The notes under the pieces: generated by a model
Told to the model about the DNA's origin: nothing
Database searches by the model: none
Seen by the model: only the letters and a program-made list of their open reading frames with translations
Program-made: the position numbers and the translations under genes
Part shown: positions 1 through 51,119 of the stretch, piece after piece
Numbering within the stretch: the first letter of the stretch is position 1
Layout: each line of letters opens with the position of its first letter
DNA from: an uncultured Lentisphaerales bacterium
GTDB lineage: Bacteria; Verrucomicrobiota; Lentisphaeria; JABSQK01; UBA12247
DNA length: 64,000 nt
Assembly: GCA_943788985.1 (NCBI GenBank)
Contig: CALSSJ010000010.1
Location: forward strand, 289,323-353,322
Reading direction: 5' to 3'

Positions 1-1
1 G

Positions 2-6000: not shown

Positions 6001-9000
6001 ATCACCGTGATTGGCGACGAGGATGTCACCCTTGCCGACATCGATGCGAATGGCGGAAATGCCGAACTGACTGCTGGTGGCGTCCTGACCTTGAACGGCA
6101 CCACCGATGCCGCTGCGACGTGATCGCGATCGCCAACGACCGGATCTGGCAGCGCGGCGCGATTGGCGGCGACGCTGACACCGTGAACGTCACCTTGACC
6201 GCTCGTGAAGGCATGATCAACAGCGACGCCGACATCTCGGGCCCACGACCAACGTCACCCTGAACGCAGGCGATGATGTAGACCGTGGCAACAACCACGA
6301 CCGCCGCGGCAAACCATCAGCATCGCAGCTGGTGGTGACGTCAACGCCAACGTGCTGACTGCCACCAACGCGGCGATAGACATCGATGCCGATGGCGACA
6401 TTGCGCTAGCTGGCACTGCTACAGCCGGAACAACCATTGACGCAGTCGCTGATCTGAGTGTGGACGACTGCAGCAGGTTACTGCGGGCGGCGCAATCACT
6501 CTCGATGGTGGCACCGATGCCACACTCGACGGGGCTGCCACTGGCGCAAGCATTGCGATCACCGCTGGCGACCTCCTGACCCAAGCCGGTGCTATCGACG
6601 TGACTGGTGACATCGACCTAGAGTCGACCTCCGGCGCTGTTGTAACAACCGGGACGGTTGAAGGTGCCAACTACGCAGTTGACGCTGCCGACTCCATCGC
6701 CATCAACGGCGATATCGACCTGACCGGTGCTTTCACACTCGGCCAGAGCCGCCAGCCCCACCGGGACCGCCACGATCAATGCTGACATCGTCAACACCAC
6801 CAGCGTGACCGCTGACACCGATGGCGACATTCTGATTACCGCGGGTTCCGACCTCAACAGCACTGGCGCGGTTGACATCGATGCTGGCAATCTGCTCGAC
6901 GTCGATGGGCAGATCAACGGCACTGATATCGTCCTGAATGCAGACGGCGATGCCCTTATTGCTACGGCTCTTATCGCGGATGGCCGGGTCGGAATCACTG
7001 CCGACAACGACGTCCTCACCGAGGGCGCTATCACAGCAACCACTGGTACGACATCGTCATCACCGCTGGCAACGACCTGCGCCACACCGCCACGCTTGGT
7101 GGCGGTGCTCGCAATGTCTTCCTAAATGCCACGACCGGTGATATTCGCAGCGAGGCGGCAGTGACTGCCGCTGGCACCGCTCGTCTCCGTGCGGGTTGAG
7201 ACATTACCGCGACTGATACTGTAGACGGTGCCGGTGTTACCATCGACGGTGGTAACGATGTCACTCTGGCGGCCATCGTCGCTCACAGCCGCTGGTGCCA
7301 ATATTGATGCTGGCAGCGATTTGACACTCAACGGCGCAGTTGACGCCCAATAACGGTGATGTGGCCCTCGACGCAGGCGGCCTGATCACTCAGGACGCCG
7401 CTATCGGCGGTGCCAACACCACGAACAACATTGCGATCACCTCTCGTGACGGCTCGCTGGATAGCAACAACATCATCGATGCAAACGACAGCGTAGCGAT
7501 CACCACCGGGCAGAACGTCGATCTGGCCAGTTCGGTCACCGCTGGTACCAGCATCGCATTAGACGCAGGCGGCACGGTTGACGCAGCAGCCATGCTGGAT
7601 GGCGGTACTTCGGTTGCTGTCTCCGGTGACGACAACGTCAACCTCGTGGACACCATCGCCCGCAGTGGCAACGCCACGATCGAAGGTCTGAATGTCACAC
7701 TTGCTGGCCCAGTCAACGCGATCAACAACGACATCATCGTGACTGCCGACAACAACATCGCCAGCAACGCGGCACTTGGTGGCTTGAACAACACCGACAA
7801 CATCACGTTGCGCGCCAACACCGGTTGGGTTAACGCCACGGACACGATTAGCGCCGATGGCACCGCCAACGTGTGGGCCGGGCAGGATATCACGACGACA
7901 GGAACCGTTGACGCGACTACAGTTCTCATGAACGGCGGCAACGACGTCGCTCTGGCTACGATCCTGGCAGCTGCCGGGGGCGCCGACATTGACGCTGGCG
8001 CAGCACTGACCCTGAACGGCGATGTCGATGCAAATGCTGGCCACCGTGACAATCGACGCTGGCGGCCTGATTACTCAGGATGCCGCGATCGGCAGCGATA
8101 ATAACACCGCCTCCGTAACCATCGCTTCTGCCGAAGGCTCACTGGATAGCAACAATACGATCGATTCGGTCGGGCTGATCAGCATCACCACTGGTGCGAA
8201 TGTTGACCTAGCCAACGCGGTCACCGCTGGTACCAGCATTGCAGTGGACGCTGGCGGCACAGTTGACGCGGCCGCAATCCTGGACGCTGGTACCTCGGTT
8301 GATGTTTCCGGCGACGACAACGTCAGCCTGGTTGACACCATCGCTCGCAGTGGGAATGCGACCATTACTGGTCTGGATATCACACTTGCTGGCCCAGTCA
8401 ATGCGATCAACAACGACATCATCGTTACTGCTGATAACAACATTGCGAGCAGCGCGGCACTCGGTGGTCTGAACAACACCGACAACATCACGTTGCGCGC
8501 CAACACCGGTTGGGTAAACGCCACAGACACGATCAGCGCTGATGGCACCGCCAACCTCTGGGCCGGTCAGGACATCACGACTACAGCAACCGTTGACGCG
8601 ACTACAGTTCTCGTGAACGGCGGCAACGACGTCGCTCTGGCTACGATCCTGGCAGCTGCCGGGGGCGCCGACATTGACGCTGGCGCAGCACTGACCCTGA
8701 ACGGCGATGTCGATGCAAATACTGGCACAGTCACCATTGATGCTGGTGGCCTGATCACTCACGATGCCGCGATTGGCAGCGATAATAACACGGCTTCCGT
8801 AACCATCGCTTCTGCCGAAGGCTCACTGGATAGCAACAACACGATCGACTCGGTCGGCCTGATCAGTATCACCACCGGTGCAAATGTTGACCTAGCCAAC
8901 GCGGTCACCGCTGGTACCAGTATCGCAGTGGACGCTGGTGGCACGGTTGATGCGGCTGCAATCTTGGACGCTGGTACGAGCGCTGCTGTAAGCGGTGACG

Positions 9001-12000
9001 ACACCGTCAGCCTGGTTGACACCATCGCTCGCAGTGGGAATGCATCCATCACTGGTCTGGATGTTACCCTTGCTGGCCCGGTCAATGCGATCAACAACGA
9101 CATCATCGTTACTGCTGACAATAACATTGCTAGCAGCGCGGCACTCGGTGGTCTGAACAACACCAACAACGTGACGTTGCGCGCCAACACTGGCTGGATC
9201 AACAGCAGCGCAGGAATTACGGCAGTGACGAACGCGAGCCTTTGGGCTGGCGATGCAATCACGACTACCGCAGCGGTCACCGCCAACGGCGTGACGGTCA
9301 ACGGTGGTGCTGATGTTGCCCTTGCTGAGATCAACGCCTTGGCCGGCAGGCGCCGACATCGACGCCGGCGACGACCTGACGCTCAACGGCGAAGTTGACG
9401 CAACTGGCGGCGCAGTCACGATCGACGCAGGCGGCCTGATCACTCAGAACGCAGCGATCGGCAGCGACGGCACTGCGACTGTGGCGATCACCTCACGTGA
9501 CGGTTCGCTGGACAGCAACGACACCATCGATGCGGCTGCTTCGGTTGCGATCACCACCGGTCAGAACGTTGACCTGCTCAGCGCTGGTCACTGCGGGCAC
9601 TACGATCGGCATCAACGCTGGTGGCACGGTTACCGCTCGCTGCTAGCCTTAATGGCACGGCGTCACGGTTGATCGGCGGGAACGACGTCAGCCTGGTTGA
9701 GGTTGCCGCTGGAACTGGCAACGCCGACATCGACGGCCTGAACATCACCTGGCTGGCGCAGTCACGCAGCGGCGCACGATCGACGTGGCCGCTGACAACA
9801 GCGTCACGCAGTCCGGCACCCTGACTGCTGCGGACATCGCAGTTCGCGCTGACACTGGCTGGATCAACAGCTCCGCTAGCGATCACCGCGCTGGCGGACT
9901 CCGCAAGTCTGTGGGCCGGTGATGCAATCACGACCAGCTGCAGCAGTCAACGCTGCTGGCGTCACCGTCTACGGCGGCGCAGACGTTGCCCTCGCTGAGA
10001 TCAACGCGACCAGCCGATGGCGCCGACATCGACGCCGGCGACGACCTGACGCTCGAATGGCGAAGTCGATGCCACTCGGTGGCGCCAGTCACGATCGACG
10101 CCGGCGGCCTGATCACTCAGGGCGCCGCGATCGGTGGCGACGGCGACTGCGTACGTGTTGCGATCACTTCGACGTGGTGGTTCGCTGGACAGCAACAACA
10201 CCATCGACGCTCAGACGAGCGTAGCAATCACGACCGGTCAGAACGTTGACCTGCTGAGCGTGGTCACTGCTGGTACTTCGATTGCGATTGACGCTGGTGG
10301 TACGGTGGATGCCGCTTCGCTGTTGAGCGCTGGTACGAGCGTCGATGTTTCCGGTGACGACAACGTCAACCTGGTTGAAGTCGATGCCGATGGCTGGCGA
10401 CGCCTACCATCGCGGGTTTGAACGTGAACCTGACTGGTCCAGTCGACGCCAACGGCGCTGACATTCTTATTACTGCTGACAACAATGTTGCGAACACCGC
10501 AGCACTTGGCGGCGACGGCACCACTAACAATGTGACGGTTCGTGCCAACACTGGCTGGATCAACAGCAGCGCAGCGATCACCGCGCTGGCGGACCCGCAA
10601 GTCTGTGGGCCGGTGATGCAACTCACGACCCGCTGCAGCAGTCAACGGTGTTGGCGTAACGGTCAACGGCGGTGCTGATGTTGCTCTGGCTGAGATCAAC
10701 GCGACCACAAGCGCCGACATCGACGCCGGCGACGAGCTGACGCTCAATGGCGAAGTTGATGCAACCGGCGGCGCAGTCACGATCGACGCTGGCGGCCTGA
10801 TCACTCAGAACGCTGCGATCGGTAGCGACGGCACTGCGACGGTTGCGATTTCCTCACGTGATGGTTCGCTCGACAGCAATGACACCATCGATGCAGCTAC
10901 TTCGGTTGCGATCAGCACCGGTCAGGACGTTGACCTGGCTAGCGCTATCAACGCTGGCACTACGATCGGCATCAACGCTGGTGGCACGGTTACTGCCGCT
11001 GCTATCCTTAATGGTAACGGCGTCACGGTTGATGGCGGGAACGACGTCAGCCTGGTTGAGGTTGCAGCTGGAACTGGCAACGCCGACATCGACGGCCTGA
11101 ACATCACCTTGGCTGGCGCAGTTAGCGCGGCTGGCACGATCGACGTGGCCGCTGACAACAGCGTCACGCAGTCCGGCACCCTGACTGCTGCGGACATCGC
11201 AGTTCGCGCTGACACTGGCTGGATCAACAGCTCCGCTACTGTCACCGCTGCGAACTCCGCAAGTCTGTGGGCTGGCGGCAACGTCATCACTTCCGCTGAC
11301 GTCAATGCTGCTGCCGTCACCATCTACGGTGGCGCAGACGTTGCCCTGGCTGAGATCAACGCGACCACAAGCGCCGACATCGACGCCGGCGACGAGCTGA
11401 CGCTCAATGGCGAAGTTGACGCAACCGGCGGCGCAGTCACGATCGACGCTGGCGGCCTGATCACTCAGAACGCTGCGATCGGTAGCGACGGCACTGCGAC
11501 GGTTGCGATTTCCTCACGTGACGGTTCGCTCGACAGCAATGACACCATCGATGCAGACTACTTCGGTTGCGATCACCACTGGCCAGGACGTTGATCTGCT
11601 CAGCGCTGTCACCGCTGGCACGACGATCGGTATCAATGCTGGTGGCACGGTTACTGCCGCTGCTACCCTTAATGGTAACGGCGTCACGGTTGATGGCGGG
11701 AACGACGTCAGCCTGGTTGAGGTTGCAGCTGGAACTGGCAACGCCGACATCGACGGCCTGAACATCACCTTGGTTGGCGCAGTTAGCGCGGCTGGCACGA
11801 TCGACGTGGCCGCTGACAACAGCGTCACGCAGTCCGGCACCCTGACTGCTGCGGACATCGCAGTTCGCGCTGACACTGGCTGGGTCAACAGCTCCGCTAC
11901 TGTCACCGCTGCGAACTCCGCAAGTCTGTGGGCTGGCGGCAACGTCATCACTTCCGCTGACGTCAATGCTGCTGCAGTCACCATCTACGGTGGCGCAGAC

Positions 12001-15000
12001 GTTGCCCTGGCTGAGATCAACGCGACCACAAGCGCCGACATCGACGCCGGCGACGAGCTGACGCTCAACGGTGAAGTTGACGCAACTGGTGGCGCAGTCA
12101 CGATCGACGCCGGCGGCCTGATCACTCAGAACGCAGCGATCGGCAGCGACGGCACTGCGACTGTGGCGATCACCTCACGTGACGGTTCGCTGGACAGCAA
12201 CGACACCATCGATGCGACTGCTTCGGTTGCGATCACCACTGGCGAGGACGTTGACTTGGCCAAGCGGTCAACGCTGGCACGACGATCGGCATCAACGCTG
12301 GTGGCACGGTTACCGCTGCTGCTATCCTTAATGGCGCCGCGGGCGTAACGGTTGACGGCGGAAGCGACGTCAGCCTGGTTGAGGTTGCAGCTGGAACTGG
12401 CAACGCCGACATCGACGGCCTGAACATCACGCTGGCTGGCGCAGTCACCGCAGCTGGCACGATCGACGTGGCCGCTGACAACAGCGTCACGCAGTCCGGC
12501 ACCCTGACTGCTGCGGACATCGCAGTTCGCGCTGACACTGGCTGGATCAACAGCTCCGCTACTGTCACCGCTGCGAACTCCGCAAGTCTGTGGGCTGGCG
12601 GCAACGTCATCCACTTCCGCTGGTCATTGCTGACTGCGTCACGATCAGCGGTGGCGCTAACGTTGCTCTGGCCGAGATCGACGCTGCTGCTGGCGGCGCT
12701 GACATCGACGCAGGCTTGATGCTGACCTTGAATGACGAGGTTGACGCTGACTGGTGGCGCGATCACGATTGACGCTGGCGACCTGATCACGCAGGATGGT
12801 GCGATCGGCAGCGACAACACGACTGCATCGGTTGCGATCACCTCAACCACTGGCTCGATTGACTCCAATAATACGATTGATGCCCTCGGCGACATCAGTG
12901 TGGATGCTGGCCAGGATGTGGATCTGCTGGATCTGGTAACCTCTGGTGCAGCACTGAGTCTGAATGCCGGCGGCAGCATTGCAGCCGTAAGCACCATCAC
13001 TGGTGACAGCGTCGAGGTTGACGGTGGCGCTGACGTTTCCCTGGCTGAAGTCAACGCCGAAGCAGGCGATGCGCTCCTCGCTGCAGGCTTGGACCTGACG
13101 CTGACCGGCGTCGTTGATGCTGCGACTGGCAACATTGTTGCTACCGCTGGCAATGACCTGACGCAGCTGGCTGCACTTGGCAGCGACCAGAGCACCAACA
13201 ACGTTACCCTGACGGCAACCACCGGCACGCTCACGAGCAGCGACACGGTTGACGCGATCGACAGCGTCGACGCCACGGCTGGTCTGGACTTGAACGTCGC
13301 GGCGCCAATCACTGCAGCAAACGGCTCAATCGCTCTGACCACCTTGGCAGGCGACCTGAACAGTGGTGAAATCCTTACCGCTGAAACCGGCGTGATCGTT
13401 GACGGTGCTGCCAATGTCAGCGTGGACCGCGTCCTGGCCTTCAACGGCGACACCACACTACGCGCTGGTAGCAACATCACACTCACCGATGCGGTCGATG
13501 CCCGTGGCGGCAACGACGTTGTGGTCTGGGCTGGTCAGAACGTGACGCAGACTGCTGCAGTTGGCGGCGATCAAGCTACCGACAACGTGACCCTTACTGC
13601 TGATACTGGCGCGATCCTCTCCACCAACACCATTGACGCAGCAATGAATGTAGCTCTGACCTCCGGCTCCAGCACTACGCTGGGTGCTGCGGTTGTCGCC
13701 GACACTGGCGACATCACGATCGGCTCCGGTGTGAATGTCACCGCTGCTGACGAACTGACTGCAACAGCTGGTGCGATTGACATCGACGCCGTCGAAGATG
13801 TAGCACTGGCCGCGCTGGTCACCGCCGGTACGACCATCGACGTAAACGCCGGTGGCACGAGTGCTTTTGCCGAACTGCACGCTGGTGACGATATCACGCT
13901 GGATGCCGATGTGGACCTGACTCTGACGGGCGCAGTTAACGCAGATGGTGCTGACATCGTAGCGACTGCCGGCCGCGACCTGACTGCTACCGCTGCCCTT
14001 GGTGGCGACCAGACCACGGACAACATCGACCTGACTGCGGTTCTGGGAACTGTTACAACGAGCAGCACGGTTGATGCAACTGAGACCATCGACTACGTCG
14101 CAGGCGCGAATATCGTAGCTGGCCAGACAGACGCTCTGGACGCGATTACCACGGACAACGGCAGCATCACTTTCGATGCAGGCGAAGGCATCGCGATCAA
14201 CACGATCGTGACCGCCAACGACAGCGTCTTGGCTGACGCTGAGACCGGCAGCATCACCACAGGTGATGACCTGATTCGCGCCGTCACTGGCGAAGTTGAC
14301 TTGGCCGCTGGTGGATCGCTCGCTCTGGGAGCTGGCGGCACACGCGCCTTCACCAACGCCACTCTGGCTGCTGACGACAATCTGACGCAGACCGGCGACA
14401 TCTTTGCTGGCGAGGCCATCAGCCTGACAGCTTCCACTGGCGCGCTGAGCACAATCGGTACGTCCGACGCCGGTAGCTTCAGCGCTGATGCTGGTGACAG
14501 CATCAACCTAGATGGCGACGTCGTCACTGAAACTGGTGGTGTTGCCATTGGCCAGACCATCGAGCCAAGCGGCAGCATTGTTCTCGATGCTACGATTGAT
14601 AGTGATACGACCGTCGCAATTGATGCGGGTGGTGACATCACCCTCAACGCAGCAGACGAGATCATCAGCAACGACGGCACTCGCATCGACGCGGGCAATG
14701 TTTTGGATCTGAACGGCAACGTGACAGCTTCGACTGTGACACTCAACGCCGATGACGACCTGTCCATCGCCGGTGTCACGACTGCAACCGATGGTGCGAT
14801 CCTCGCAACTGCTGGTGGCAACGCGGTCATCACTGACCTGCTGGAAGCCACCACCGATGTGACTGTGAGCGCCGCCGGCAACTTGGCCACTGACGAGATC
14901 ATGGCTGGTGTACCGGCTAATCCAACGACTGGCCATGTCACGTTGACTGCTGGCGAAAGCTTGGTGATGAACGACGCTATCGACGCAGTCGGCAACTTGA

Positions 15001-18000
15001 CGGCAACCGCCACTGTCAATATCACTCAGAATGCTGAGATTGGGCTTGAGCAAGATACCGAGATCGTGACGTTCTCGGCAGAGACCGGGAGCGTGACCAG
15101 CAGCAATGTGATCTGGGCCGCCAGCGACATCAACGTCACAGCGGGAACCGACGTATCCAGCGGAAGCAGCCAGTGGACTGCAGACACTGGCTCGGTAACG
15201 GTTGCAGCTGATGAAGACGTGACGCTGAACAACCGCATCGAAGCCAACGACAACATCAGCGTGACCGCAAAGCATGCACTGAACGCTGGCAATCAGCTGT
15301 TGCTGGCTGCTACCGGAGACATCTCCTTGAGCGGTGGCGACGTGAGTGTGGGTGTTGCAGGCGCTGAAGCGACCGCAGGGAACATCGACATTGATGCAAC
15401 CTTGACTGATGCAGCTATCCGTGGTGACCTGACCGCAGGCAACGGCATTGCAGTCGACGCCGCTGGTGCGATCAGCACCGCCGAGGCAGTGCTGGACGCC
15501 CACGGTGACGATGGTGACGTTGTCCTGACCGCTGGCAGCAACATCAATCTTGGTATCGGTTCCGCCGAAGCTGGCGATGATGTGATCCTGACTGCAGGTG
15601 AGAACATCAATCAGATCGGCGACATTCGTGCCAACACCCATGCCGGGAACACTGAGCTGGACAGCGAAGGTGATGTTATCCTGACTGCCACAACCGGTGC
15701 CATCACCACAACTGGCCAGGTACTGAGCGGCGTGAACTACACCGCCGATGCAGCGAACTCCATCACGCTCGGCGATCTGGCAGGCGCAGCAAACAACGGC
15801 AATATTGATGTGACTGGCAACGTTCACGTCGGTCAGAACATCGAGCCGACCGGCGACATTGACTTCAACGCAGACATCAACGCCGATGGCGAGGTTCTGG
15901 TTGACGGTGGACATGATATCACATTGGCTGCGACTGAGGACATCATCGCAGTTGGTGATGTGAACATCGACGCAGGCGCCACCGCGCTGGTAGACGGCGA
16001 CATCAACGGCCATGACATCACGCTCCGCGGCGAGCATGCTCTTCTAATTAATGGAGAGCTGAATGCCACAGGCGAGACCAACCTGAGTGGTGGAACTATC
16101 GACGCAACGTCTGCCATCACCTCTGCTACCGACGTCACCGTTCGCTCCGATGAGGAAGTGACCCTGGCTGAGGTTGAGGCCTTGGGTGGCTTCGTTGACA
16201 TCTATGGTGGCGGACACGTCACCTTGAACGGCGATATTGAGGCCACGACGGATGTAACGGTCTTCAGTTTGGATGCTGGCATCACGCAGATTGGTAACAT
16301 CGGCACCAAGGTTGCTGTGGACACCGCAGACAACGTGACCTTGACCGCAGCGGTTGGCACGATCGTCAGTAGCGGCAACATCAACGCCGTGAACGACATC
16401 ACCATTGATGCACACACCGATGCAACACTGAGCGCACTGCTGGTGGCTGACACTGGCAACGTGAACTTGCTGTCCAACAATGCAGATGTGGTTGGCTTGA
16501 GCGGTTCGGCGATCGAAGCGACCGTTGGTGACGTCAACGTGACTGCTGGTTCCGACGTGAGCTTGGCGGACACTGTTAACGCGGGCACGGACTTCAACCT
16601 GAATGCAGTTGAGACCATCACCTTGGGTGGTGCAGTCACAACTGGTGGTGCAGTCAACGTCGGACAGACCACTCGGACGACCGGTGAGTTGGCCATCAAC
16701 GCAGCAGTTGACGCAACTGGCCCGATTGACATCGACGCAGAGGGCGGCATCGAGGTAGCAGACGTCTTGGTTGACGGCGACGCAGCTGTTACGATTGACA
16801 CACTGGGCAGCATTGATCTGAACGGCACACTGACGGGTGACAGCATTGCAGTACGCAGCGCTGAAGGAAACCTGGAAGTAGACGGCGTGGTTGCTGCTGA
16901 TGGCAGCACCGTGTTGTTGAGCGCTGCTGGCAACGTCGGTATCGATGATACCGTGGACGCCGCCACTGACGTGACCGTCTGGGCTGGTGACAGCATTTCG
17001 CAGACCGCAGCCATCGGCAGCGGCGGCCTGACCGACGCAATCAGCCTGACTGCTGAGCTCGGGACCGTTAGCAGCACTGCGAACATTACGGGCATCAGCA
17101 CGATTGACGTGACTGCCGGAACGGATGCAACCTTTGCAAATGACGTGATCGGTAGCGCCGTGACAGTGGTTGCTGGTCAGGATGCGGTAACTCGCTCCGG
17201 GATCGTTGACGCCAACGATGGCGCGGTTGCGATCTCCGCAAACCGCAATGTGACGCTGGGATCCGGCGGAACTGAAGCGACCAACGGTGTGACTCTTGCT
17301 GCCGATCAGGCGCTGTGGGTAAACGGCAACGTGAACGCTGACAGCAACTCCGACGGAACGGGTGACATCGACCTGGATGCAACCAACGGTTCGCTTTGGG
17401 CCAACGGCACGCTGGACGGGGCGAACCTGACTGCTGACGCAGGGAACACCCTGACCATCGCTGGCAACACTACCACAACTGGTGCGATCATCATCGGCGG
17501 CACGACGGTTCCGGCTGGCGACATTAGCATCACGGCTACCAACGTGGATGCAACCGGCGATATCACTGTCAACGGCGGTGCAGACGTCTCGCAGAGCGGC
17601 ACGCTTGATACCGACGGTGCTCTGTCCATCACTAACGGTGGCGCGGTCGACTTGGACGGCACCGTTGGTGCAGCGAGCATTGCGCTCGATGCCGCTGGCG
17701 ATGTTGATGCAGCGGGTACACTGAGCATTGACGGCAGCGGCCTCACGATTGAGTCCGACAGCGATGTCAGCCTGAGCGAGGCAATCTCTGCGGTTACTAA
17801 CGTTACAATCAATGCTGATGGCTCCATCGAGCACGACAGCACACTGACGGCTGTAACCGCTTCGCTGAAGGCTACCAATGGTGACATCACCAGCGGTGGT
17901 GCCATCACGCTGAGTGGTGACCTGAGTGCGGACGCCGGCCAGAATGTTCGCTTCGACGATACCGTCACCGCTGCCACCATCGAGGTGGGGGCTGGCGCCG

Positions 18001-21000
18001 ATCTACGCACGACTGAGCTGGTCAGTGCCACTGCTGGCAACGCCAGCCTGCGCAGCAGCGAAGATGCGACAATCGGCAGTGGCGGCGTGACTGCTACTGG
18101 CGATGTGAGCGTCTGGGCTGCCAACAGCTTGGATCAGAACGGCGCACTGAGCGCTGGCGGCAATGTCTCTGCCATCGCCCAAACCGGTGGCTTGACGGTT
18201 GACGCAACCATTGACGGTACAGATGTCACGTTGGACGCTAATGATACGCTGGCGATCAACAGCGATGTGACTGCAACCAGCGACCTCCTGATTGGCATCA
18301 ATACGCCAGACGAAATCAACGTGGATGCAAACCTGACTGGCACTGACAGTTTAACCGTTCGCGGGCAGGGCGACCTGACGCAGACCGGCGGTCATGCCAT
18401 CAGCAGCGACGGACTCATCGACGTAAATGTTGGTGGTGCCCTTACACTGCACGGTAGCGCAACTGGTTCCGACCTGAACTTGGCAGCGGATGCGGCAACG
18501 GTCGCAGTCCTGGCTGCGATTGGCGGAGATGCTGCAATCATTGCTCGTGAAGGCGATGCAATCTTCACCGATACGGTCGACGCAACTGGCGCACTGACGA
18601 TCGGTGCCAATGGCGCAGTTGAAACGTCCAGCACTCTGACGGCCGGTGCACTAATCGACATTGATGCAACCACGGGCGACATTGACCTCGGTGGCGCTGT
18701 GATCGGTGGCGCTGTAAGCGGCTTGGCTGCGGGCGACATCCATACGGACGCCGCGATCTCCGCAATTGCGGGGAGCGTCGAGCTGACCAGCACGACTGGT
18801 GAAGTTGATGTCGCAGGTGTTACTGCGAGCGATGCAATTGCACTGGACGCTGCAGCCAACCTGGCGCATGGCGCTCTGAATGCAGGCGGCGACGTCAGTG
18901 CTAACGCTGGCGGAAGCTGGAATGGTGCTTCGATTGTTGGTAACAACGTCGCTGCGAATGCCGCTATCAATGGTCTGATTGGCGACATCACCGCTGACGG
19001 CACTGTCACGATCGGTGTAGCTGGCGAACAGGCCGGTGTCCTTGAGTTGGCTGGTGTCGTTGACGCCGCTGGTGCCGTCAACGTAGTGGGCGAAGACGAC
19101 GTAACGTTGAGTGGTGCATCGCTGGACAGTGACAGCACGGTGAACATCAGCGCTGCTGAGAACCTAAGCCTGATTGGCACGGTCGGTGGTACTGAGGTAA
19201 CGCTCACGGGTGCCAATGTGACCGCAAGCAGCGTGGCCGCTGACGCCGGTGACGTGACAGCCACCAGCGTGGGCGCTGTCTCAATCAGCGAGGCGACCGC
19301 AACGAATAGCATTGCGATCTCCGCAGATAGCATCACACTCAACGATGCGACCGCAGACAGCGACACTAACAATGACGGCGACTTGCTGCTGACCGCAGTG
19401 GGCGCAGTCAACCTGAGTGGCGACAACAGTGCCGAGAATGCCACGGTCACTGCCGGTGACTTCCTGATGGCCAGCGATGCCAGCCTGGCAGTCGTTGACA
19501 GTGTGGACGTAACTGCGACGGGTGTGGCTGCAATCTCCGACATCGGTGCAACCAATGCCACGATTAGCGCTGATTCAATCATCGAGTCCGGTGACGACAG
19601 CGACGCAGATCTGACCGCTCGTCGGATTTGGCTGAGTGCCGAGAATGGGATCGGCGAGAATGGCCTGACCGCTTCTCAGAATGCAATCGAGATTGATGGC
19701 GGTGTTGAAGTTGGTATCTCGACCGTCACTTGGAACGGCACAGATGACCGCCTTGAGTTTGGCACCAATGGCGACCATGGGCTGCAGGTTGGTGATCAGA
19801 TCGTGGTTTCCGGGACGGACAACTACAATGGCCCGGTCGAAGTGACGCAGGTCATTGATAGTACAACCTTTGTCACGAGCCAAACTCACGTCTACGACGA
19901 GGCTGCTAATCTGGGTGTCACTGACATTGCTGCGGATGGCACTTCGATCTTGACGATCGCCTACAACCGCCATGAGGACCGTATGGAATTCACCACCAGC
20001 GGTAACCATGGCCTCGAGCCTGGCGATGTGATTGCGATCAACAACACCGGCAACTTCAACGGTGCTGCTGTGGTTGTCACGCAGGTGCTGAACGGCACGA
20101 CCTTTGTCACTGGCCAGGACCCGGATCGTAGCGAGACGAACCTGACCACCGCTGAGATCAACCGCGGCGTGACCTACACCACGGCTGGCCAGCATGGTCT
20201 GCGCGTGGGCGACGAAGTCGAATTGGCCGATACCACTGGTTACAACGGTACCGCCGTCGTGACCTGTATCATTGATGACACTACCTTCGTGACCAACCAG
20301 TTGACCGATGCCGATGAGGTTACTGGAACGCTCGTTCGTGACTTCAACCTTGGGCACGCCGAATTAATCGCGACGACGACCGGCGACGACGCAGACATCC
20401 TGCTGCGTGGTCTCAATACAGTTGCACTGACAATCAACGAGCTGTCGACGCAGAACGGCGATATCTCACTGGTGGCTGACAACGATATCGTCGCTCACAT
20501 GGTCATGGCTCTGGATTATGGTAGTCCTGGAGTTGATGTGGATGGCGATGGAATCATCGAAGAAGGAATCAACGGTGACCTTGATGACGCCCACGACCTG
20601 ACGCTGATCTCAAATGGTGGCTCACTGACTATCGCTGGTACGGTTCTGGCTGATGCCAATGCGAACATTCAGTCAGCCGAAGGGATCATCACTGACCTCA
20701 ATGGTGACGGCGATGCCGACGGTGGCGTAGTCGCTGGCGTGATCAACATCACGGTGCCAAGTACTGTTACCGCTGATCAGACCTTCGGGGGGCTTCACTT
20801 CCAACACGACGATCACGATCAACAACCAAGGCGAAGGCGAAACCGTTATTCTCCGCAATGGCCTGGTCGCCAGTGGCGATGTCGGGATCACCAGTGTGAA
20901 TGACGTTCACCTGTACGAAAACGCGATCACCTCCGGCGGCGACATCGCGCTGGCCAGTACTGGTGGTACTCGCGTTGTCTCCGATACTCACGGTCAGCTG

Positions 21001-21762
21001 ATTTGGACTGATTACGGCGGCGATATCCTGGACGGCGCTTCTACAGATCCGCTGAATCTACGCGGTGAGCAGGAGCTGGACCCTGTCACAAAGCTGCCTA
21101 CCGGTCGCATCATTCCGGGCACACAGGTTCGTGACACAGACATCTACGCCACTAACCTGAATGCCGCTGGCAGCATCACTCTCTCTGCTTGGGGCTGGAT
21201 TGGCAAGGACGTCGAGCATGTCCCATCCACTGACGGCGATCCACCACTCTTTGGCGACGTGGATCCGATCGAGCTGGATGCCGGTACTAACCTGACGTTC
21301 GAGTACTTGGGCGACCGCGATCTGGGAGCAACGTTCTGGGCACTGGCTGTAGGCGAGATCGACGGCGAGCGGGTTCCGGACAACGTAGACTTTGTGCACG
21401 CTGCTGATGAGGATCGCGTGCCACCAGGGTACATCTACTACAATGGCGATTTTGTCGGTGGTCAGACACAGCCAGTACGTGAGTACATCCGGATGCAGCA
21501 GGCACATCACATGATGCGCAAGCTGCTGCAGGAGCAAGCTGTTCTGCAGCCGGGCTACTTCACGCACGTACTTTCCGAGATGAACAATATCTGGGAGATC
21601 CCAGCCATTGAGTACATGAACAATGGTGGTGGCTATATCTTTGGCCTACCGGTTCATACTGAGCTTCCTGCACACATCGATATTCTCGAAATGCAGGACG
21701 ATCAGTTCCGTTGGGCCGAGAGCCCAGAGGAGCGCTCGCAGCGCAGTCAGCTGTCTAAGTAA
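2..21762 (+). CDS. Giant filamentous haemagglutinin/TpsA-like beta-helical surface protein (5' end outside the window; split by many apparent indel errors)
   Basis: Frame open from base 2. ORF fragments 41-3013, 2805-3806, 7340-8101, 8022-9398, 11109-12348, 12732-20903 and 20896-21762 share one A/G/T/D/V/I/N-rich beta-helix style (e.g. 'AGxDITLxAxxxI') and join across frame changes. Nearly Cys-free. Final stop TAA at 21760-21762. The TPS secretion domain would lie upstream and is not visible. Confidence 0.8.
3509..3637 (+). repeat. Perfect 60-bp tandem duplication (VTAGNDVTLANTTDATGDVT x2)
   Basis: 3509-3568 is repeated identically at 3569-3628, and identity continues to 3637. Confidence 0.9.
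7340..12800 (+). repeat. Intragenic tandem array of about 8 units of 660-690 bp (about 220-228 aa) in the haemagglutinin-like gene
   Basis: Marker ctgat(c/t)ac(t/g)ca ('LITQ/H') recurs at about 7382, 8067, 8751, 9436, 10109, 10797, 11457, 12118 and 12783. 'RANTGWIN/RADTGWIN' occurs once per unit. Confidence 0.85.
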
Positions 21763-39363: not shown

Positions 39364-39511
39364 CTTGGGACAACAAGGGCTGGTGGAGATGACCGTGAAT
39401 TTCATGTCGTTGAAGGCAGAACCTCCGGCGAAAAATCGGTCTGGCAATTGAAAAATCAGGGCAGTCGTGCGTTTTGAGATAGGAGACTGTCGAACCACTT
39501 GCGCTTCTGAT

Positions 39512-45870: not shown

Positions 45871-48800
45871 TTACCACTTCACCCCAACATTAACATGGCC
45901 TTTACCGCCATTGGATTCGCTATCAGACAACGGCCAGCCGTAGTCGAACTTAAGATCCGAGTACTTGGTCAAGCCCAAGCGGAAACCGGCACCCACACTG
46001 TGGAACCCTTGGTCAGCAGACTCGCCAGGTTGAGGCGTGTTGTTCTGGACTTTGCCGAAATCGTAGAAGCCGACCAACTGCAGGCGATGTGACATCCAGT
46101 CCTCAGGATTGCGGCGCATGTACTCTTCGGAGCGGGTGAGCCCGGGGATGAAATTGTGCGAGAGTGGAGTACGAACTTCGACTGTGCCAGTGACACCAGA
46201 GTCGCCGGAGACTTCGCTCTCTTCGTAGCCACGAACGTCGTTCGCGCCGCCCATTCGCTTCTTGAGCGAGGGGTAGAGTTCGTTGCTAGACAACTGTGCG
46301 TCCAAACGGAGCATTGCTGTCCAGCGACCCGGTTGGTCCTCGCCCTCAAAGAGGCGCTGTAAGCGGGCGTAGCTAAAGCGGTTGATCGCGAAGTTACCCT
46401 CGGAGTGTGCAGAGCCCTCCGTGAACTTGCTGGCCTTGGAGGCGCCGAGTTTTCCTGCGAAGTTTGCACTGAGTGTATTCGAGAAGTAGTTACGCCCGCC
46501 GCTTTTGTCAAAGTCTTTGGCGGAGTATCCCAGCCGGAAGGAAGGCATACTGACTCGTGCTTCGGTCGGGGCCTGTACGGTTTGTTTGGCGAATCCAATC
46601 TCGGTCTGGCTGGCTTGAAGAATCCAGCCAAAGGTCGCATCCCAGCGTCGCTCGTCAGAGTCTGCAAGGACCTTGCTGTACTGCATGCCGAGGTACCAGC
46701 CTTCACCGATGATATCAAACTCGCTGGAGACGTCCTTGATGTCGGATGCGGAAAAGCCACCATAGAGGGTCAGCCCGCGCTGGTCTTCCAGTGGCAGGTA
46801 GTAACTGGCGGAAAAGGCGTTGACTGTATTTAGATCCTTCGGGTCGGTCAGCCACTCCGTGGTCAGAGCATCATTCCGCTTGGTCAAGTTGAGGTGCTGC
46901 ACGGTGGTACGCATGCGCCAGTCGCTTGTTTCGGCGGTGCCGGTGTTCGCCAATGAGAGGGCCAGATGCAAGGGCCAGTCGTCTTCGACGTCAACCTCGA
47001 CGTCGATGATGCGGTTGCCGAACTCGTCGACTCTAGGCTGTAGTTTGGTGTCCAGACGGATATCGGGCTTGGCATTGAACTCGAAGAGATTGGCGTAGAG
47101 ATTGCGATAGTTGAATCGCTTGTTGGTCTCCCACCGCACTGCGTTTAGGATCTGCTCAGCGGTGTACCACCGGTTGTTGGACACAGTGACTTCACCCTTC
47201 TGGCCGACATGGACGCGGAATTTCAGGAAGCCGAGGCTGAGGGAATGCTTGTAGACGGAGACCGTGGCAAACACGTAGCCGGCATCCTGCAGATCCTTCA
47301 GGAGACGCTGACGGAATGACTCGACGTCGCCTTCGGACATCGGTGCGTAGAGGGCATCGTTCTCGTAGTCTTCCCAATTCTCCAAGTTGATGACGGGCTC
47401 ACGGTCACCGGTGACAACGACTGCGTTGATGTCATATTTTGTGCCGCTTTCCTTGGCTGCACGAGCGCTGATGGATTCCTCCTCGCCACCTTCTGGAGGC
47501 CAAGCACCCTTGTAGGAAATCTCACCAGGACCAGCGGTCCCGGCCTCGACTTTGGCCCGGTCTATCTTGGAGCGAATCTCTTCGATTCCGCTGCCGATGG
47601 TCGCACTGATTCGTTGAGCCTTGTTGGCTTCTTCGTATAGGTCCCAAGTCTTCTGTGCTTCGTTCAAGCGAATACGCGCGAGCTCAAGTTGCTTGCGGGA
47701 CTGATCAGCGTCAATCTGTGCTTTGGCTTCGCGGTAGCGGTATTCCTTGAGTTCCTGCATGATGTCTTCGGCGTGAGTCTGTGCCGCATTGAGTTCAATG
47801 AGCTTGGCGCGCCATTCGGCCTGGCCGGATGCCTGTGAGGACTCCTGGCTCTTCTGAACCATCAGCATCTTTGCTTCCCGTTCGCGCTGCTCTAGTTCTC
47901 GAATTGCCCGCTGGACGTTGATCATTTCGGTTTCTTTGAGATTTGCTTCCAGCTGGGAGATATTGAAGTCCTTCTGAGCGGCATCGAGGTCGAGTCGAGA
48001 CTTGCGCTGCATTTCGGTTTCGGCTGCGTCACGCTCGTCGCGAACCTGCTTTAGCTCGGATTTGGCGATCTGGGTGCGGCGCTCGCCTTCAGCTTCAGCC
48101 CGTGCGGCGACTCGGTCGCGGTCAGCTTCAAGCTCGGCTTGGCGCGCTGCGAGGCGCAGTTCGTCGCGGTCTTTGCGCTTGTCTGCGAGTTGCTCTTCCT
48201 TGGTCTGCTTGGCCGCGAGACGTTCTTGGCGGGCGCGCTCGCGCTCTGCCTCGCGAGCTGCCTGCTCGGCGGCCTCGCGCTCGCGGTCGTCCTTTTCAGT
48301 GGTCTCCTGCGAGACGATGCGCTGCTGGTCAGCCTCGATTCGATCGACGTTGCCCGGCACTTCAGGAGTCTTGATTTCTGCTTTCTTCTGCGCTGCAATG
48401 TGACGCTCGCGGCGCTCTGCTGCTTCCTGCTCTGCCTCGTTGCGCTCTGTTTGTGCCTTTGCCTCTCGTGCTTTGGCGCGGGCTAGTTGCTCCGCATCAC
48501 GCTTGGAACGCTTGGCGCGTTCCTTAGCTGCTTTTGCCGCGGCGCGACGGTCGCGGTCAATTTCGCGACGGCTCTTGGTGGTTTGCGTAGGTACCTGAGC
48601 AATCACAGTCGGCGTCTTTTTGTCCGCGTTTGCGCGGCTCTTTGTGGCGGCTTGCTCTAGTCGCGCCTTCTCCGTGGCTGCCAGTTGTGCAGCGAGTTCT
48701 GCAGCGCGCACTCTTGCGGCTTCCGCCTCCCCTTGTGCTTTGGCTTCAGCAGCTGTCCGGGCTGTATTCTCTCGGGCGGCGACTAAGCGTTGCTGCTCTG

Positions 48801-50763
48801 CGGCGCGTGCTTGGTCTGCCGCATCAAGGGCGTCCCGTTGGGCACGAGCCTCAGCCAACTGCTTCTTGTTCTCCTTATCGATTATCTGCTCGGCCATTTT
48901 CTCGGCTTGAGCAAGGCGTCGAAGTTCGACGTCGCGGGCTTGTTGCGCGGCATCCGCTTCGGCAGTAGCACGCTTGCGATGTTGCTCTGCACGAGCCCAT
49001 GCCTGTTGGTGCTCAGCATGACGCTGCTCGGCTGCTCGGACCTGCGCTACAATTGGTGCGTTGTACTCCTTGGCGCTTGCAAGCGCCTGCTGGGCCTCGC
49101 CTGCTTGCATCTTCGCGTGTCCCAAAGCTTCGCGATATTGGGCGATCTGATACTCGATTTGGGTCGCTTCCTGGCGAATAGTCAGGGCCTTCTCCTGCGC
49201 CTTGCGCATGGCCTTGGTCGCCTTGTTGCGCTCGCGCTGCCCGTCGGCAGCAGCGGCCAACTGTGTTTTCGCGCGCACATCGGCATTGAGATAGACGAGA
49301 CGCTCGGTCAGGGTGTTGCGGCGGGTCGTTTCTCCTTCAATTTTGGCACTCAGTGCTGAAACGGTCTTCGTACTATCCTCATACATGCCGCGTGCCGAAT
49401 CCATGTCCTTCATCTTGACGTGCATCTCACGATTTAGGCGGTCCCGTTCCTGCTCGCGAAGCTTTGTCTGGCGTGCCGCCTCCGCGACGCGTCGCTCGGC
49501 GTCGGCAGCGGCTTCTGCTGCTGCGCGATCGGCGGACTCTCGCTTCGCTACGGCGCGTTGGGCTGCCGCGTAGGGCTCGTAGCGCTTGAGTGCTTGTTGG
49601 AGGCGCTCGTCTGCGTGAGTTGCGGAGCGTTGCGCGTGTTCGACCTTGAAGGCGAGGCGGGATACTTCTGCTTGGAGTTTGGTCAGTTCGGTGCTGGCTG
49701 CGGCTGCCTGCTTCTCTAGTGCGCGGGTTCGCTGCCGAGCTTCATCTCGAGCAGCGTCGTCGCGCGCCGTCTCGATGTCGCGGGACGAAGCCTTGGCTGC
49801 TGCGAGTGCTTCGCGGTAGCGGCGCTCTACCTGGCTTTCTCGTTGCTGTGCGTCGGCGAGTTGGTGGGTGAGGGAGGCTGCGTCGCGATGAGCGGTCTTA
49901 TATTCGGATTGCCGCTGCGAAAATGCCAGCTCTGCTTGGATTTCTTCGGATTTTCCGGAGAGGCGTGCTTTTTCTTCGGTAGCGAACTGGCCATCCATCT
50001 TGGCAGCTATCTCGGCTGTGGTCTTGGCGCGGTGCTGACTTTGGGAAAGTACTGCCCTTGCCTGCTCCAAGCGTACGTCGTGGGCGGCAATGTCGCCGCG
50101 GATCACCTTGAGACGGTGCTCTGCATCTGCCAAGCGATCTGCTGGGCCCTGGGCCCCGAAAAGGCGGTTGAAGAAACCGCCCTTCTTCACTGCGGTCTTC
50201 GCATCCTGCTTGATTCCGGCTGTAGATGCATTGGTGCCGTCAATCAGTGACTCCTCCTGCGCCTGGGCGCGGGCGAGTTCTTTCTCTAGCTTGCTGAGTT
50301 TTTCGGCGGCCGCTCGTATTCGTGCCTGGTCGGCTTGAGCTTTGGCTGCGTTGTGCTGTGCGCGGGCCACGTTCACTGCTGAACGAAGATTGGTGACTTG
50401 TTGGCTAGCAATCTCCCGCTGCTGGAGGCGATGGGCCCGGTTGGATGCGTGGGTGTTGCCGATCGGGCCGTCTGGTGAGCTGGCTTCGTTCAAGGCCTTC
50501 TGGGCTGCCTCGAGTTCGTTTAGCGCTGTTTCCTCGGCGGAGCGGTGCTCATCAAGCGCGGCTTCGAGGTCAACCACGCGCTGGGCCTGCCTCGTGAGGT
50601 TCCGTTCTGCGCCCTCAGCTTCGCGCTCGGCCGCGGCACGCTCAGAGTTACTAACAGCTAATACGCCAAGCGTTAGAAGTGCGCTAGTTGCCGCTAGTAC
50701 GGTAACGACATGGCGCGTTCGCCTGTCGAGATGCAACGCAAGCAGCTGCTTGTAATATGCCAT
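45871..50763 (-). CDS. Atypical TpsB (ShlB/FhaC/HecB family) outer-membrane transporter with a ~1,000-aa N-terminal coiled-coil extension (1,630 aa)
   Basis: The C-terminal ~520 aa show POTRA-like 'LQDAGYVFATV...LKFRVHVG...VTVSNN', 'NTGT', the loop-6 'GGANDVRGY...GDSG...EVRTP', 'FYDFG', 'SVGAGFR', 'DYGWPL' and a terminal aromatic (VKW). The N-terminus has a hydrophobic signal or anchor followed by A/E/R/K/Q-rich helical sequence. Confidence 0.88.
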   Translation of the reverse strand: MAYYKQLLALHLDRRTRHVVTVLAATSALLTLGVLAVSNSERAAAEREAEGAERNLTRQAQRVVDLEAALDEHRSAEETALNELEAAQKALNEASSPDGPIGNTHASNRAHRLQQREIASQQVTNLRSAVNVARAQHNAAKAQADQARIRAAAEKLSKLEKELARAQAQEESLIDGTNASTAGIKQDAKTAVKKGGFFNRLFGAQGPADRLADAEHRLKVIRGDIAAHDVRLEQARAVLSQSQHRAKTTAEIAAKMDGQFATEEKARLSGKSEEIQAELAFSQRQSEYKTAHRDAASLTHQLADAQQRESQVERRYREALAAAKASSRDIETARDDAARDEARQRTRALEKQAAAASTELTKLQAEVSRLAFKVEHAQRSATHADERLQQALKRYEPYAAAQRAVAKRESADRAAAEAAADAERRVAEAARQTKLREQERDRLNREMHVKMKDMDSARGMYEDSTKTVSALSAKIEGETTRRNTLTERLVYLNADVRAKTQLAAAADGQRERNKATKAMRKAQEKALTIRQEATQIEYQIAQYREALGHAKMQAGEAQQALASAKEYNAPIVAQVRAAEQRHAEHQQAWARAEQHRKRATAEADAAQQARDVELRRLAQAEKMAEQIIDKENKKQLAEARAQRDALDAADQARAAEQQRLVAARENTARTAAEAKAQGEAEAARVRAAELAAQLAATEKARLEQAATKSRANADKKTPTVIAQVPTQTTKSRREIDRDRRAAAKAAKERAKRSKRDAEQLARAKAREAKAQTERNEAEQEAAERRERHIAAQKKAEIKTPEVPGNVDRIEADQQRIVSQETTEKDDREREAAEQAAREAERERARQERLAAKQTKEEQLADKRKDRDELRLAARQAELEADRDRVAARAEAEGERRTQIAKSELKQVRDERDAAETEMQRKSRLDLDAAQKDFNISQLEANLKETEMINVQRAIRELEQREREAKMLMVQKSQESSQASGQAEWRAKLIELNAAQTHAEDIMQELKEYRYREAKAQIDADQSRKQLELARIRLNEAQKTWDLYEEANKAQRISATIGSGIEEIRSKIDRAKVEAGTAGPGEISYKGAWPPEGGEEESISARAAKESGTKYDINAVVVTGDREPVINLENWEDYENDALYAPMSEGDVESFRQRLLKDLQDAGYVFATVSVYKHSLSLGFLKFRVHVGQKGEVTVSNNRWYTAEQILNAVRWETNKRFNYRNLYANLFEFNAKPDIRLDTKLQPRVDEFGNRIIDVEVDVEDDWPLHLALSLANTGTAETSDWRMRTTVQHLNLTKRNDALTTEWLTDPKDLNTVNAFSASYYLPLEDQRGLTLYGGFSASDIKDVSSEFDIIGEGWYLGMQYSKVLADSDERRWDATFGWILQASQTEIGFAKQTVQAPTEARVSMPSFRLGYSAKDFDKSGGRNYFSNTLSANFAGKLGASKASKFTEGSAHSEGNFAINRFSYARLQRLFEGEDQPGRWTAMLRLDAQLSSNELYPSLKKRMGGANDVRGYEESEVSGDSGVTGTVEVRTPLSHNFIPGLTRSEEYMRRNPEDWMSHRLQLVGFYDFGKVQNNTPQPGESADQGFHSVGAGFRLGLTKYSDLKFDYGWPLSDSESNGGKGHVNVGVKW

Positions 50764-51119
50764 AATTGGACCTTTAAGGAATGCAATATTGTGTGGTAAG
50801 TCGTTGTTGTCTAGAGCTTAGTGAATATTCGAGAAGATGTCAAAAAGTCCCGAAAATGATGATGGTTCTAGTAGCGCTTAGGCCGGCTTCAGAAAAAACT
50901 CCCGTCGCGGCAGTGATTTGATTCGTCTGGTAATATAAAAAGTCAGTCCTTAAAAGCAAACGATTTTCCCGGTTTTCAGGCAGTAGCTCGTGGCTCGCGC
51001 GAGGCGCGCCACGGGGCCTGCCGTCGGGCTGGGTGCTTAGTGACCAACTTGGACCGTGTCGTAGATGGCGCACCTTGTGCTGTGGGTTATGGTGTCTGGG
51101 CACCCTGATCAGGAACGAC

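Follow-up and report, generated by a model that had tools for sequence, protein, structure and literature searches.

The closest described relatives of the protein treated here are FhaC of Bordetella and CdiB of E. coli and Acinetobacter, the outer-membrane transporters (TpsB) of two-partner secretion, or type Vb secretion. TpsB transporters are regarded as minimal machines made of a plug helix, two POTRA domains, and a β-barrel, and their chains are short (538–566 amino acids [aa] in FhaC and CdiB; 554 aa in the solved FhaC chain and 538–560 aa in the solved CdiB chains), in agreement with the usual size given in a first-pass annotation of this DNA. We analyzed a stretch of 64,000 nucleotides (the window) from an uncultured Lentisphaerales bacterium (assembly GCA_943788985.1, contig CALSSJ010000010.1, positions 289,323 to 353,322), which carries a tpsB gene of unusual length. 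Its product shares with FhaC and CdiB the ShlB/Omp85 barrel with the VRGY and F.D motifs and a POTRA region ahead of it; these two are also its best matches among solved structures, and in its relatives the gene adjoins the gene of a TPS-domain substrate. It differs from them in ~1,040 extra helical residues (the arm), which map between the predicted signal peptide and the linker that precedes POTRA1 of a TpsB. Further differences from FhaC and CdiB are that short members of this family have no helix between signal peptide and linker, where the plug helix H1 would lie, that the gene order in the relatives is tpsB and then tpsA, and that the substrates can exceed 10,000–15,000 aa. We tentatively read the arm as a periplasmic accessory that helps to capture or hold the giant substrate, with a probability of about 0.4.

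PlpD of Pseudomonas aeruginosa (type Vd) is the only studied Omp85 protein with a large non-POTRA N-terminal domain, and this domain is reported to lie in the periplasm (PMC11116518). The PlpD domain is a patatin-like lipase and export of a partner is not known for PlpD, whereas the N-terminal region described here is helical, has no Pfam match, and is accompanied by a conserved TpsA gene. BamA and TamA belong to the same superfamily, with POTRA domains and a 16-strand-type barrel, and the match of our protein to Pfam Omp85 (PF01103; 30.3 bits, cut-off 24) is weak but above the cut-off; however, the family profile matches CdiB and FhaC about ten orders of magnitude more strongly than BamA, and the synteny here is with TPS genes. 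Elongated periplasmic helices, rich in Ala and in charged residues, on a membrane protein are known from domain II of TolA, the TonB rod, Lpp, the OmpM/SlpA tethers, and the CrvA filament. No sequence relation of the arm to any of these was found, and in our protein it is a protein-export pore that bears the helix. Tethers of the OmpM/SlpA type have an N-terminal SLH (peptidoglycan-binding) domain before the coiled coil, while Pfam finds no SLH, OmpA-like, or TolA domain in our protein.

A survey of Omp85 and TpsB proteins distinguished ten architectures, and in its main text the words "coiled" and "Lentisphaer" have no occurrence (PMC4104836). In the full-text literature, the coverage of which leaves most subscription journals outside, we came across no TpsB whose N-terminus is extended by a long helical segment, so an earlier description is possible. 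A conserved clade with 400–1,900 extra helical residues would be the first case of a TpsB type that carries a large accessory domain. Its partner genes include some that rank among the longest known from bacteria, and the long form itself was found in many marine metagenomes and also in RNA libraries. This form may offer a handle on an open question of type V secretion, namely how very long unfolded substrates survive in the periplasm and are guided across it without ATP. It also bears on annotation, as public records label these proteins "BamA/TamA family" or "hemolysin activation protein."

Assignment to the TpsB Family

The Omp85 signature consists of (V/I)RG(Y/F) at the tip of L6 and a motif of the F/G-x-D-x-G type on the barrel wall. 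The R-G-Y of VRGY as well as the F and D of FYDFG are invariant in the alignment of 56 family sequences. ShlB (PF03865), the Pfam family named in the first-pass annotation, matched residues 1254–1594 with 54.9 bits against a cut-off of 22.7, and with 60.8 bits when the C-terminal 550 aa were searched alone. POTRA_2, named there as well, stayed below its cut-off in the protein itself (14.5 bits versus 24, residues 1136–1186), but each of the 13 close relatives scanned matched both POTRA_2 and ShlB at E ≤ 0.1 (the best POTRA_2 value being 2.9e-6), and the POTRA region of 145 residues would fit two POTRA domains. The Omp85 subfamily model of NCBIfam reached 22.6 bits against a cut-off of 200.

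A plain phmmer search of the C-terminal 550 residues against solved structures found no relative. The profile of 56 family members, which aligns over FhaC residues 28–474, had its best structural matches in CdiB (6wil, 1.4e-14) and FhaC (4qky, 7.3e-14), compared with 1.6e-4 to 4.9e-4 for BamA chains and 7.3e-4 for Toc75. This distance, together with the ShlB match, upholds the earlier placement with TpsB/FhaC rather than BamA/TamA, and it is decisively the gene context, which pairs the relatives with TPS-domain genes (see below), that establishes the membership. Judging from profile and context, the protein is a type Vb outer-membrane transporter of the TpsB/FhaC/CdiB kind, whose export activity itself is predicted. 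Residues 1–1135 contain no Pfam family at E ≤ 1, and hence no patatin-like passenger of the type Vd kind; neither an SLH nor another wall-binding family was found by Pfam in the protein or in the 13 relatives scanned.

Integrity of the Fused Gene

The first-pass annotation had described one clean open reading frame (ORF) of 1,630 aa with a hydrophobic N-terminus, a Pro-poor helical stretch, a POTRA-like region, and a VRGY barrel, and all of these were confirmed. Its concern that a stop or frameshift might separate the two parts is answered by independent assemblies. The gene stretch is present in 20 public runs from 11 studies, all of them marine, estuary, or salt-marsh metagenomes; 16 of these runs hold at least half of the sampled words of the gene, and one is possibly the source sample. 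In a marine metagenome of another study (X2), a contig of 4,121 nucleotides (nt) covers positions 47237–51000 with 9 substitutions and no gaps and spans the junction of arm and POTRA region without an insertion or deletion (indel). Contigs of a third study (X4) over 47237–47574 and 47564–50898 differ by substitutions only, and no indel in the gene is listed for any of the four runs compared. An independent contig from JGI (L034) carries the 3' 1,082 codons at 100% identity, followed by the same downstream genes. RNA libraries of two studies also yielded contigs, which fall on the arm as well as on the barrel; this indicates presence in the library and is not proof of transcription, and coverage gaps and depth were left unused. 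A short stretch of the POTRA region (47140–47266) occurs as two alleles in marine metagenomes, and the paired 127-nt contigs of X2 and X4 differ by 0–1 versus 6. The frame is unbroken in independent samples, and the gene has been kept intact.

The same assembly has many frame breaks in the neighboring giant genes and in a carbamoyltransferase gene, which would suit the view that two genes were joined by an assembly or frameshift error. That origin is nevertheless refuted by the contigs that bridge the junction without indels, by the 91 homologs that carry the fusion (see below), and by the conservation of linker and helical module as one unit with the POTRA region, and we give it practically no credence.

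Distribution of the Long Form

When proteins of 896–2,853 aa were searched with the POTRA-barrel part, 91 relatives of 897–2,471 aa (median 1,076) were found, all of which carry PF03865. The search for homologs with the same fusion, proposed in the first-pass annotation, was therefore successful, and the long N-terminal helical extension recurs among proteins of the same build. The source names, available for few of the 91, are metagenome-assembled genomes (MAGs) of Kiritimatiellaeota, Lentisphaeria, Victivallales, or Oligosphaeraceae. When 1.84 billion representatives were searched exhaustively with HMMER, 3,981 hits were obtained at E ≤ 1e-3; among the best 150 of these, 41 are 740 aa or longer and 81 have 500–699 aa. 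A barrel relative at E ≤ 1e-40 is present in 22 of 401 sampled genomes of the phylum.

In a maximum-likelihood tree of the POTRA-barrel part, computed from 56 chosen rows in which long forms are over-represented, our protein falls into a clade of 14 rows (support 98/97). Thirteen of these are long; in the remaining one, P0093, the gene call begins within the helical module. Another clade (21 rows, support 100/99) contains 17 long forms. The label "long" requires 8 changes on this tree, compared with a mean of 18 in shuffles, and none of 500 shuffles was as low. As judged from these homologs, bacteria of the Lentisphaeria/Kiritimatiellia type carry the fusion as a family trait. Another kind of N-terminal extension was seen in P0116 (1,267 aa), which has three POTRA1-like units (FPFPRRG.PRH...GD) with long linkers rich in Pro, Ala, Ser, Thr, and Val between them.

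Architecture and Evolution of the Arm

Residues 41–1080 are composed of 21.4% A, 12.3% E, 12.0% R, 8.9% Q, and 7.0% K; there are 9 prolines ahead of the linker, and runs free of Pro and Gly span 66–189 residues in the arm. By this composition the arm is predicted to be helical, and it is heptad-periodic in parts. Our own heptad score, compared with shuffles in windows of 35 residues, exceeded z = 2 in 21 of 76 arm windows (27 of 72 in a second run) and in 0 of 35 control windows from the POTRA region and barrel. In seven other family members, heptad-positive windows made up 27–48% of the arm versus 0–6% of the core. The heptad blocks keep a constant register and lie within residues 38–604 and again at 990–1080, while residues ~600–900 are 6–16% hydrophobic and up to 52% charged and show no heptad periodicity. 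Because the signal occurs in blocks and is missing at ~600–900, the arm reads as a segmented helical region and not as one coiled coil of 1,000 residues. The coiled coil of about that length proposed in the first-pass annotation agrees with this score only in the blocks; the part in between is of helix type without heptads.

The best-conserved portion of the arm adjoins the POTRA region. In P0003, P0006–P0008, P0010, and P0011, conservation starts at residues 898–912, with 48–67% identity, and a helical module of ~170 residues next to the linker is present twice in P0006, P0007, and P0010. Farther toward the N-terminus, alignments were obtained with P0003 (33%, residues 194–575), P0009 (27%, residues 156–403), and P0016 (a match of 59 residues) only, and an LFG..P loop and a Y.PY motif, represented here by LFGAQGP (residues 201–207) and YEPY (residues 395–398), recur across subclades. 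Arm lengths in the family range from ~190 to ~1,900 residues. Strains whose cores are 98–100% identical differ by whole repeats and modules, with total lengths of 1,466–1,727 aa.

No known relative of the arm was found with Pfam and NCBIfam (whole protein), with Pfam in 13 relatives, with phmmer against the PDB, or in the ESM Atlas. A profile that includes the arm matched nothing but unspecific coiled-coil or charged proteins (e.g., SMC, a myosin rod, TCERG1, and RipA), and these matches were read as composition and not homology. Among the best 8,000 candidates by shared words, no stand-alone form of the module at residues 900–1080 was found in proteins of 99–317 aa, and a search for the whole arm in proteins of 573–1,826 aa, with the same limit on candidates, returned only the protein itself and two close relatives.

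These properties bear on the possibility that the arm serves no particular function and is a low-complexity repeat whose growth was tolerated because the N-terminus is permissive. Gain and loss of repeats between strains, fast divergence, the lack of stand-alone or otherwise fused homologs in these searches, and the arm-less orthologs that appear to work with giant substrates (see below) would all agree with neutral expansion. However, open frames of 1,000–1,900 codons have been kept in many lineages, 13 of the 14 members of the well-supported clade of our protein are long (the 14th being the truncated gene call), the LFG..P loop, the Y.PY motif, and the POTRA-side module recur across subclades, and the helical, Pro-poor composition with heptad blocks is kept in 8 of 8 proteins tested. 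We consider a functionless arm quite improbable and continue to prefer an accessory arm that acts on the substrate.

Pairing with Giant TPS-Domain Genes

Ten further genomes of the phylum have a barrel relative, and in all 10 a TPS-domain gene lies downstream of it at a distance of no more than a few hundred bases. Among 15 metagenome loci, a TPS gene is located downstream in 11 of the 11 informative ones from other organisms; L034 (our own gene), L043 and L044 (the short paralog), and L038 (contig ending at the match) were left out. When long forms alone are counted (frames of ~870 aa or more, not all from independent organisms), a TPS gene (PF05860) follows directly in 13 of 15 informative loci (G012:C163, G010:C8, G011:C386, G245, G045, L035, L036, L040, L041, L042, L045, L046, and L047), so the suggested co-occurrence with giant TpsA genes is borne out. 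The two unpaired loci are that of the present genome and that of genome G002, where a gene for a Calx-beta giant follows instead; the contig of G013 is too short to judge. The largest pair is found in G012, where a TpsB of 2,103 aa precedes a TpsA that runs off the contig and has at least 15,178 aa.

The present genome (83.6% complete, 48 contigs) contains two ShlB genes, the long one and a paralog with a frame of 606 aa, and two TPS hits. The large tpsA, which has an extended signal peptide, starts ~12 kb ahead of the window, at ~G000:C10:277.5k. Its TPS domain (E 1.8e-30) is 44.6% identical by tblastn to the TPS domain behind the long tpsB of G012, although hmmscan of the stop-to-stop frame of 3,917 aa found no family. 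The first frame has 3,832 codons from its Met, and the reading goes on along the + strand through overlapping frames into the window. There, the ORFs at 8022–9398 and 12732–20903 begin with a near-identical repeat, lack signal peptides, and have Arg-rich tails that look out of frame, and only ORFs of ~90–160 aa are present on the + strand at 3800–7300 and 9400–10600; tpsA is spread over more than 10 overlapping frames. Because of the shared repeat starts, the lack of signal peptides, and the out-of-frame-looking tails, we infer that the window from 1 to ~21762 belongs to the same tpsA gene, which, if contiguous, would have ~11,000 codons.

A distance of 24 kb separates the presumed end of tpsA from the long tpsB, which is on the other strand, with the tpsA start 58 kb away from tpsB on the same contig. 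By analogy with its orthologs, the substrate of the long-form TpsB would be this giant TPS-domain protein, the gene of which is here separated from tpsB. The giant substrate gene expected in the first-pass annotation does exist and is directly downstream of tpsB in relatives, but it is not adjacent in this genome. A second TpsB beside the tpsA of this genome was considered and rejected: the ORF of 550 aa upstream of tpsA reads by eye as an IlvC-type enzyme, and the genome has two ShlB genes only. A second, small TPS gene, apparently in four overlapping short ORFs, is located at G000:C14:41966-43617 (L026:5967-7618), and no TPS gene adjoins the short tpsB paralog on contig C11.

Location of the Arm

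By a crude rule (hydrophobic core plus small-x-small site), 97 of 113 long homologs are signal-peptide-like, and the 16 that fail are mostly gene calls starting inside the arm, including P0011, P0014, and P0017 on very long contigs. Clear signal-peptidase sites are found in most homologs (e.g., TSA↓A, AQA↓Q, VNA↓Q, and AVA↓Q). Residues 1–38 of our protein comprise a basic n-region (RRTRH), a hydrophobic core of 19 residues (V19–V37), a Gly at −6, and a candidate site A-V-S↓N. Because 97 of 113 homologs pass the rule and this protein has the Gly and the A-V-S↓N site, cleavage of the predicted signal peptide appears more likely than its retention.

This weakens the proposal of the first-pass annotation that an uncleaved N-terminal segment makes the arm a tether. 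Such a protein would be anchored in the inner membrane, link both membranes by one polypeptide, and hold the pore over a Sec site. The hydrophobic core preceded by RRTRH is in keeping with this arrangement, and an arm of ~1,040 residues could easily span the periplasm; on the other hand, most homologs have textbook signal-peptidase sites, this protein itself combines a Gly at −6 with A-V-S at positions −3 to −1, and neither the great excess nor the variability of arm length is needed for a taut tether. We therefore give a tether between the two membranes little chance and favor an arm that is free of the inner membrane.

Arm-less orthologs indicate where the arm was added. In L033 (601 aa; ...ATAQA↓QFGGREAMITYSGPYPGG...) the signal peptide runs straight into the linker and POTRA1, and the same is true of L037 and L039; the cores of these three are ~50% identical to that of the long form. 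The short paralog on C11 of the present genome is likewise without an arm. Since the short orthologs go from signal peptide through the same linker to POTRA1, the arm would be an insertion at a periplasmic N-terminus. That the arm itself stays in the periplasm is suggested by this position and by the reported periplasmic placement of the N-terminal domain of PlpD (PMC11116518). Just upstream of the short tpsB of L033, which comes from the chromosome-level MAG G417, lies a DDE transposase gene.

Alternatively, the arm could be exposed at the surface, with the last helix before the linker passing through the pore and the helical part forming an external fibril, so that the protein would be a hybrid of types Vb and Vd that displays its own passenger. 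The N-terminus of FhaC is extracellular, and the order of helix, Gly/Pro linker of ~35 residues, and POTRA1 mirrors the order of H1, linker, and POTRA1 in FhaC. Fast divergence and length polymorphism between strains are also typical of exposed fibrils. Against such a stalk, short members of the clade lack any H1-like helix, and a pore filled by its own stalk would clash with export of the adjacent TpsA, which is kept in 13 of 15 long-form loci; the reported periplasmic location of the N-terminal domain of PlpD speaks against it as well (PMC11116518). A surface stalk is improbable in our view, and the preferred location for an arm that helps the substrate is the periplasm.

Possible Role of the Arm

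A role near the substrate is suggested by the fact that the best-conserved part of the arm abuts the POTRA region and is duplicated in some homologs. According to a review, TPS-POTRA recognition starts export, and DegP binds non-native FHA fragments and is a possible holding chaperone for FHA (PMC5422565). In the mechanism that we propose, the signal peptide would be cut and the barrel inserted in the outer membrane, and the arm would stay periplasmic as a series of elongated, segmented helices with a heptad-type N-terminal head, a charged spacer, and the conserved module beside POTRA. Hanging from the substrate-docking site of the POTRA region, it would widen the periplasmic reach of the transporter and, on the way from the Sec exit to the pore, help to catch the unfolded giant substrate, to hold it, or to shield it. 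It would be an accessory, which improves the basic TpsB reaction and does not enable it. A bolder version, in which the outer-membrane-anchored arm extends all the way through the periplasm and makes contact with the substrate at the Sec exit or close to it, so that exoproteins of 10,000–15,000 residues cross both membranes as one guided thread, seems to us unlikely; if it were true, the "simple" two-partner pathway would be an envelope-spanning system, with arm length tuned by gain and loss of repeats.

Several observations weigh against a substrate-holding arm. The TpsB of 601 aa (L033), located in the chromosome-level MAG G417, precedes a TpsA frame of 10,335 aa, and a form of 651 aa in G094 precedes a TpsA frame of 4,922 aa. 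Judging from these two pairs, giant substrates do not require the arm, and the arm is dispensable. No clear relation of arm length to TpsA length was seen in the measurable pairs, many TpsA frames ending with the contig. All 41 related genomes examined contain Skp, so there is no chaperone gap to fill. The arm diverges much faster than the core in 12 of 12 pairs (e.g., identities of 92.5% versus 100%, 79.9% versus 95.2%, and 84.7% versus 98.6%), and its length differs by up to ~260 residues between strains with 98% identical cores; such fast evolution is as compatible with a spacer under little constraint, or with an exposed element, as it is with a holdase. In the present genome, yebC (after 57 bases) and then ruvC, not tpsA, follow tpsB, and the tpsA frame is broken in the assembly. 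Finally, the N-terminal hydrophobic core, with its 19 residues, has sufficient length to act as a membrane anchor.

The idea of the first-pass annotation that the arm is a built-in chaperone required for a giant substrate is accordingly weakened by the arm-less ortholog with its TpsA of 10,335 aa and by the presence of Skp. We also rejected two narrower versions, namely that arm length tracks substrate length, for which the pairs in G417 and G094 are counter-examples, and that the arm replaces a missing Skp. The TpsA frame of 10,335 aa has two TPS matches ~600 residues apart (noted at L033:12156-21644 and G417:C1:1083387-1085894).

The arm might instead serve the envelope and not handle the substrate at all: a periplasmic anchor or spacer that ties the transporter to peptidoglycan or another envelope component, sets a spacing, or clusters transporters by coiled-coil pairing, and passes the load of a giant, possibly pore-retained adhesin to the wall. 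Helices rich in Ala, Glu, Lys, and Arg are found in structural spacers, and the family profile draws SMC arms, a myosin rod, and the RipA coiled coil. Linkers rich in Pro, Ala, and Lys lie between coil and POTRA in P0035, P0016, P0094, and P0096, and these resemble the rods of TonB and TolA. Low sequence constraint, variable repeat number, and dispensability of the arm for secretion as such also agree with this role. However, Pfam finds no peptidoglycan-binding or other known domain in the arm, and a periplasm of fixed width should fix the length of a ruler, whereas the arms range from ~190 to ~1,900 residues and differ between near-identical strains. Fast divergence and length changes between strains argue against a fixed-length ruler and are compatible with all other readings. 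We regard an anchor or spacer as rather unlikely, and keep the accessory arm that captures or holds the substrate as our working interpretation.

Features and Neighborhood of the Locus

Table 1. Parts of the long-form tpsB gene and associated features, in window coordinates.
Feature	Position	Strand	Details and basis
Long-form tpsB gene	45871..50763	−	1,630 codons plus stop, ATG start, zero internal stops
Signal-peptide-like N-terminus, residues 1–38	50650..50763	−	Sequence and crude small-x-small rule
Predicted helical region with blocks of significant heptad periodicity, residues 39–604	48952..50649	−	Heptad score
Highly charged Ala/Glu/Arg/Lys-rich helix-type spacer without heptad signal, residues 605–900	48064..48951	−	Composition and heptad score
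Conserved predicted helical module adjoining the POTRA region, residues 901–1074	47542..48063	−	Alignment with relatives
Gly/Pro linker, GTAGPGEISYKGAWPP...ARA, residues 1075–1108	47440..47541	−	Family consensus G.AG...SYQG.WPP
POTRA region, starting KYDINAVVVTGD, residues 1109–1253	47005..47439	−	Weak POTRA_2 match, profile alignment with FhaC
ShlB/Omp85-type β-barrel, residues 1254–1630	45874..47004	−	Pfam ShlB and motifs
VRGY motif, residues 1510–1513	46225–46236	−	Sequence
FYDFG motif, residues 1566–1570	46054–46068	−	Sequence
Promoter-like site TAGACA-17-AATATT, 22 nt 5' of the tpsB ATG	50785..50813	−	Consensus match only
Presumed partner tpsA, 3' two-thirds, many overlapping frames	1..21762	+	TPS domain, frame pieces, repeats

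The features of the locus are listed in Table 1. Four promoter-like consensus sites were found, compared with 1.8 expected. The gene on the 5' side of tpsB is a divergent histidine-kinase gene (51033–53066), which in turn adjoins a gene at 54310–58221 (+) for a secreted protein of 1,303 aa with a right-handed β-helix and Big_9/cadherin-like domains.

Between the presumed tpsA and tpsB, a second giant gene, which encodes dozens of Calx-beta repeats and a signal peptide of its own, occupies 21887–39320 (+), in about ten frames in the assembly. A Calx-beta giant, the repeats of which are 30–43% identical, lies directly downstream of the long tpsB in G002 (L023:7695-11036), and the two may belong to a wider conserved neighborhood. 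The VIT and VWA domains encoded at 39467–41344 (+) are in two adjacent ORFs, a further sign of frame breaks or split genes, and the carbamoyltransferase gene at 59899–60952 (+) is split into two overlapping ORFs.

A 13-base palindrome, TGCGRANTYCGCA, is hyper-abundant in the genome and occurs 5 times in the window (0.03 expected), at positions 3050, 11249, 11910, 12572, and 60494. Three of these copies are spaced 661–662 nt inside the tpsA repeats. The possibility that this palindrome shaped the Ala-rich arm was discarded, as the tpsB gene contains 0 copies. Another copy lies in the overlap of the two carbamoyltransferase ORFs (60272–60537).

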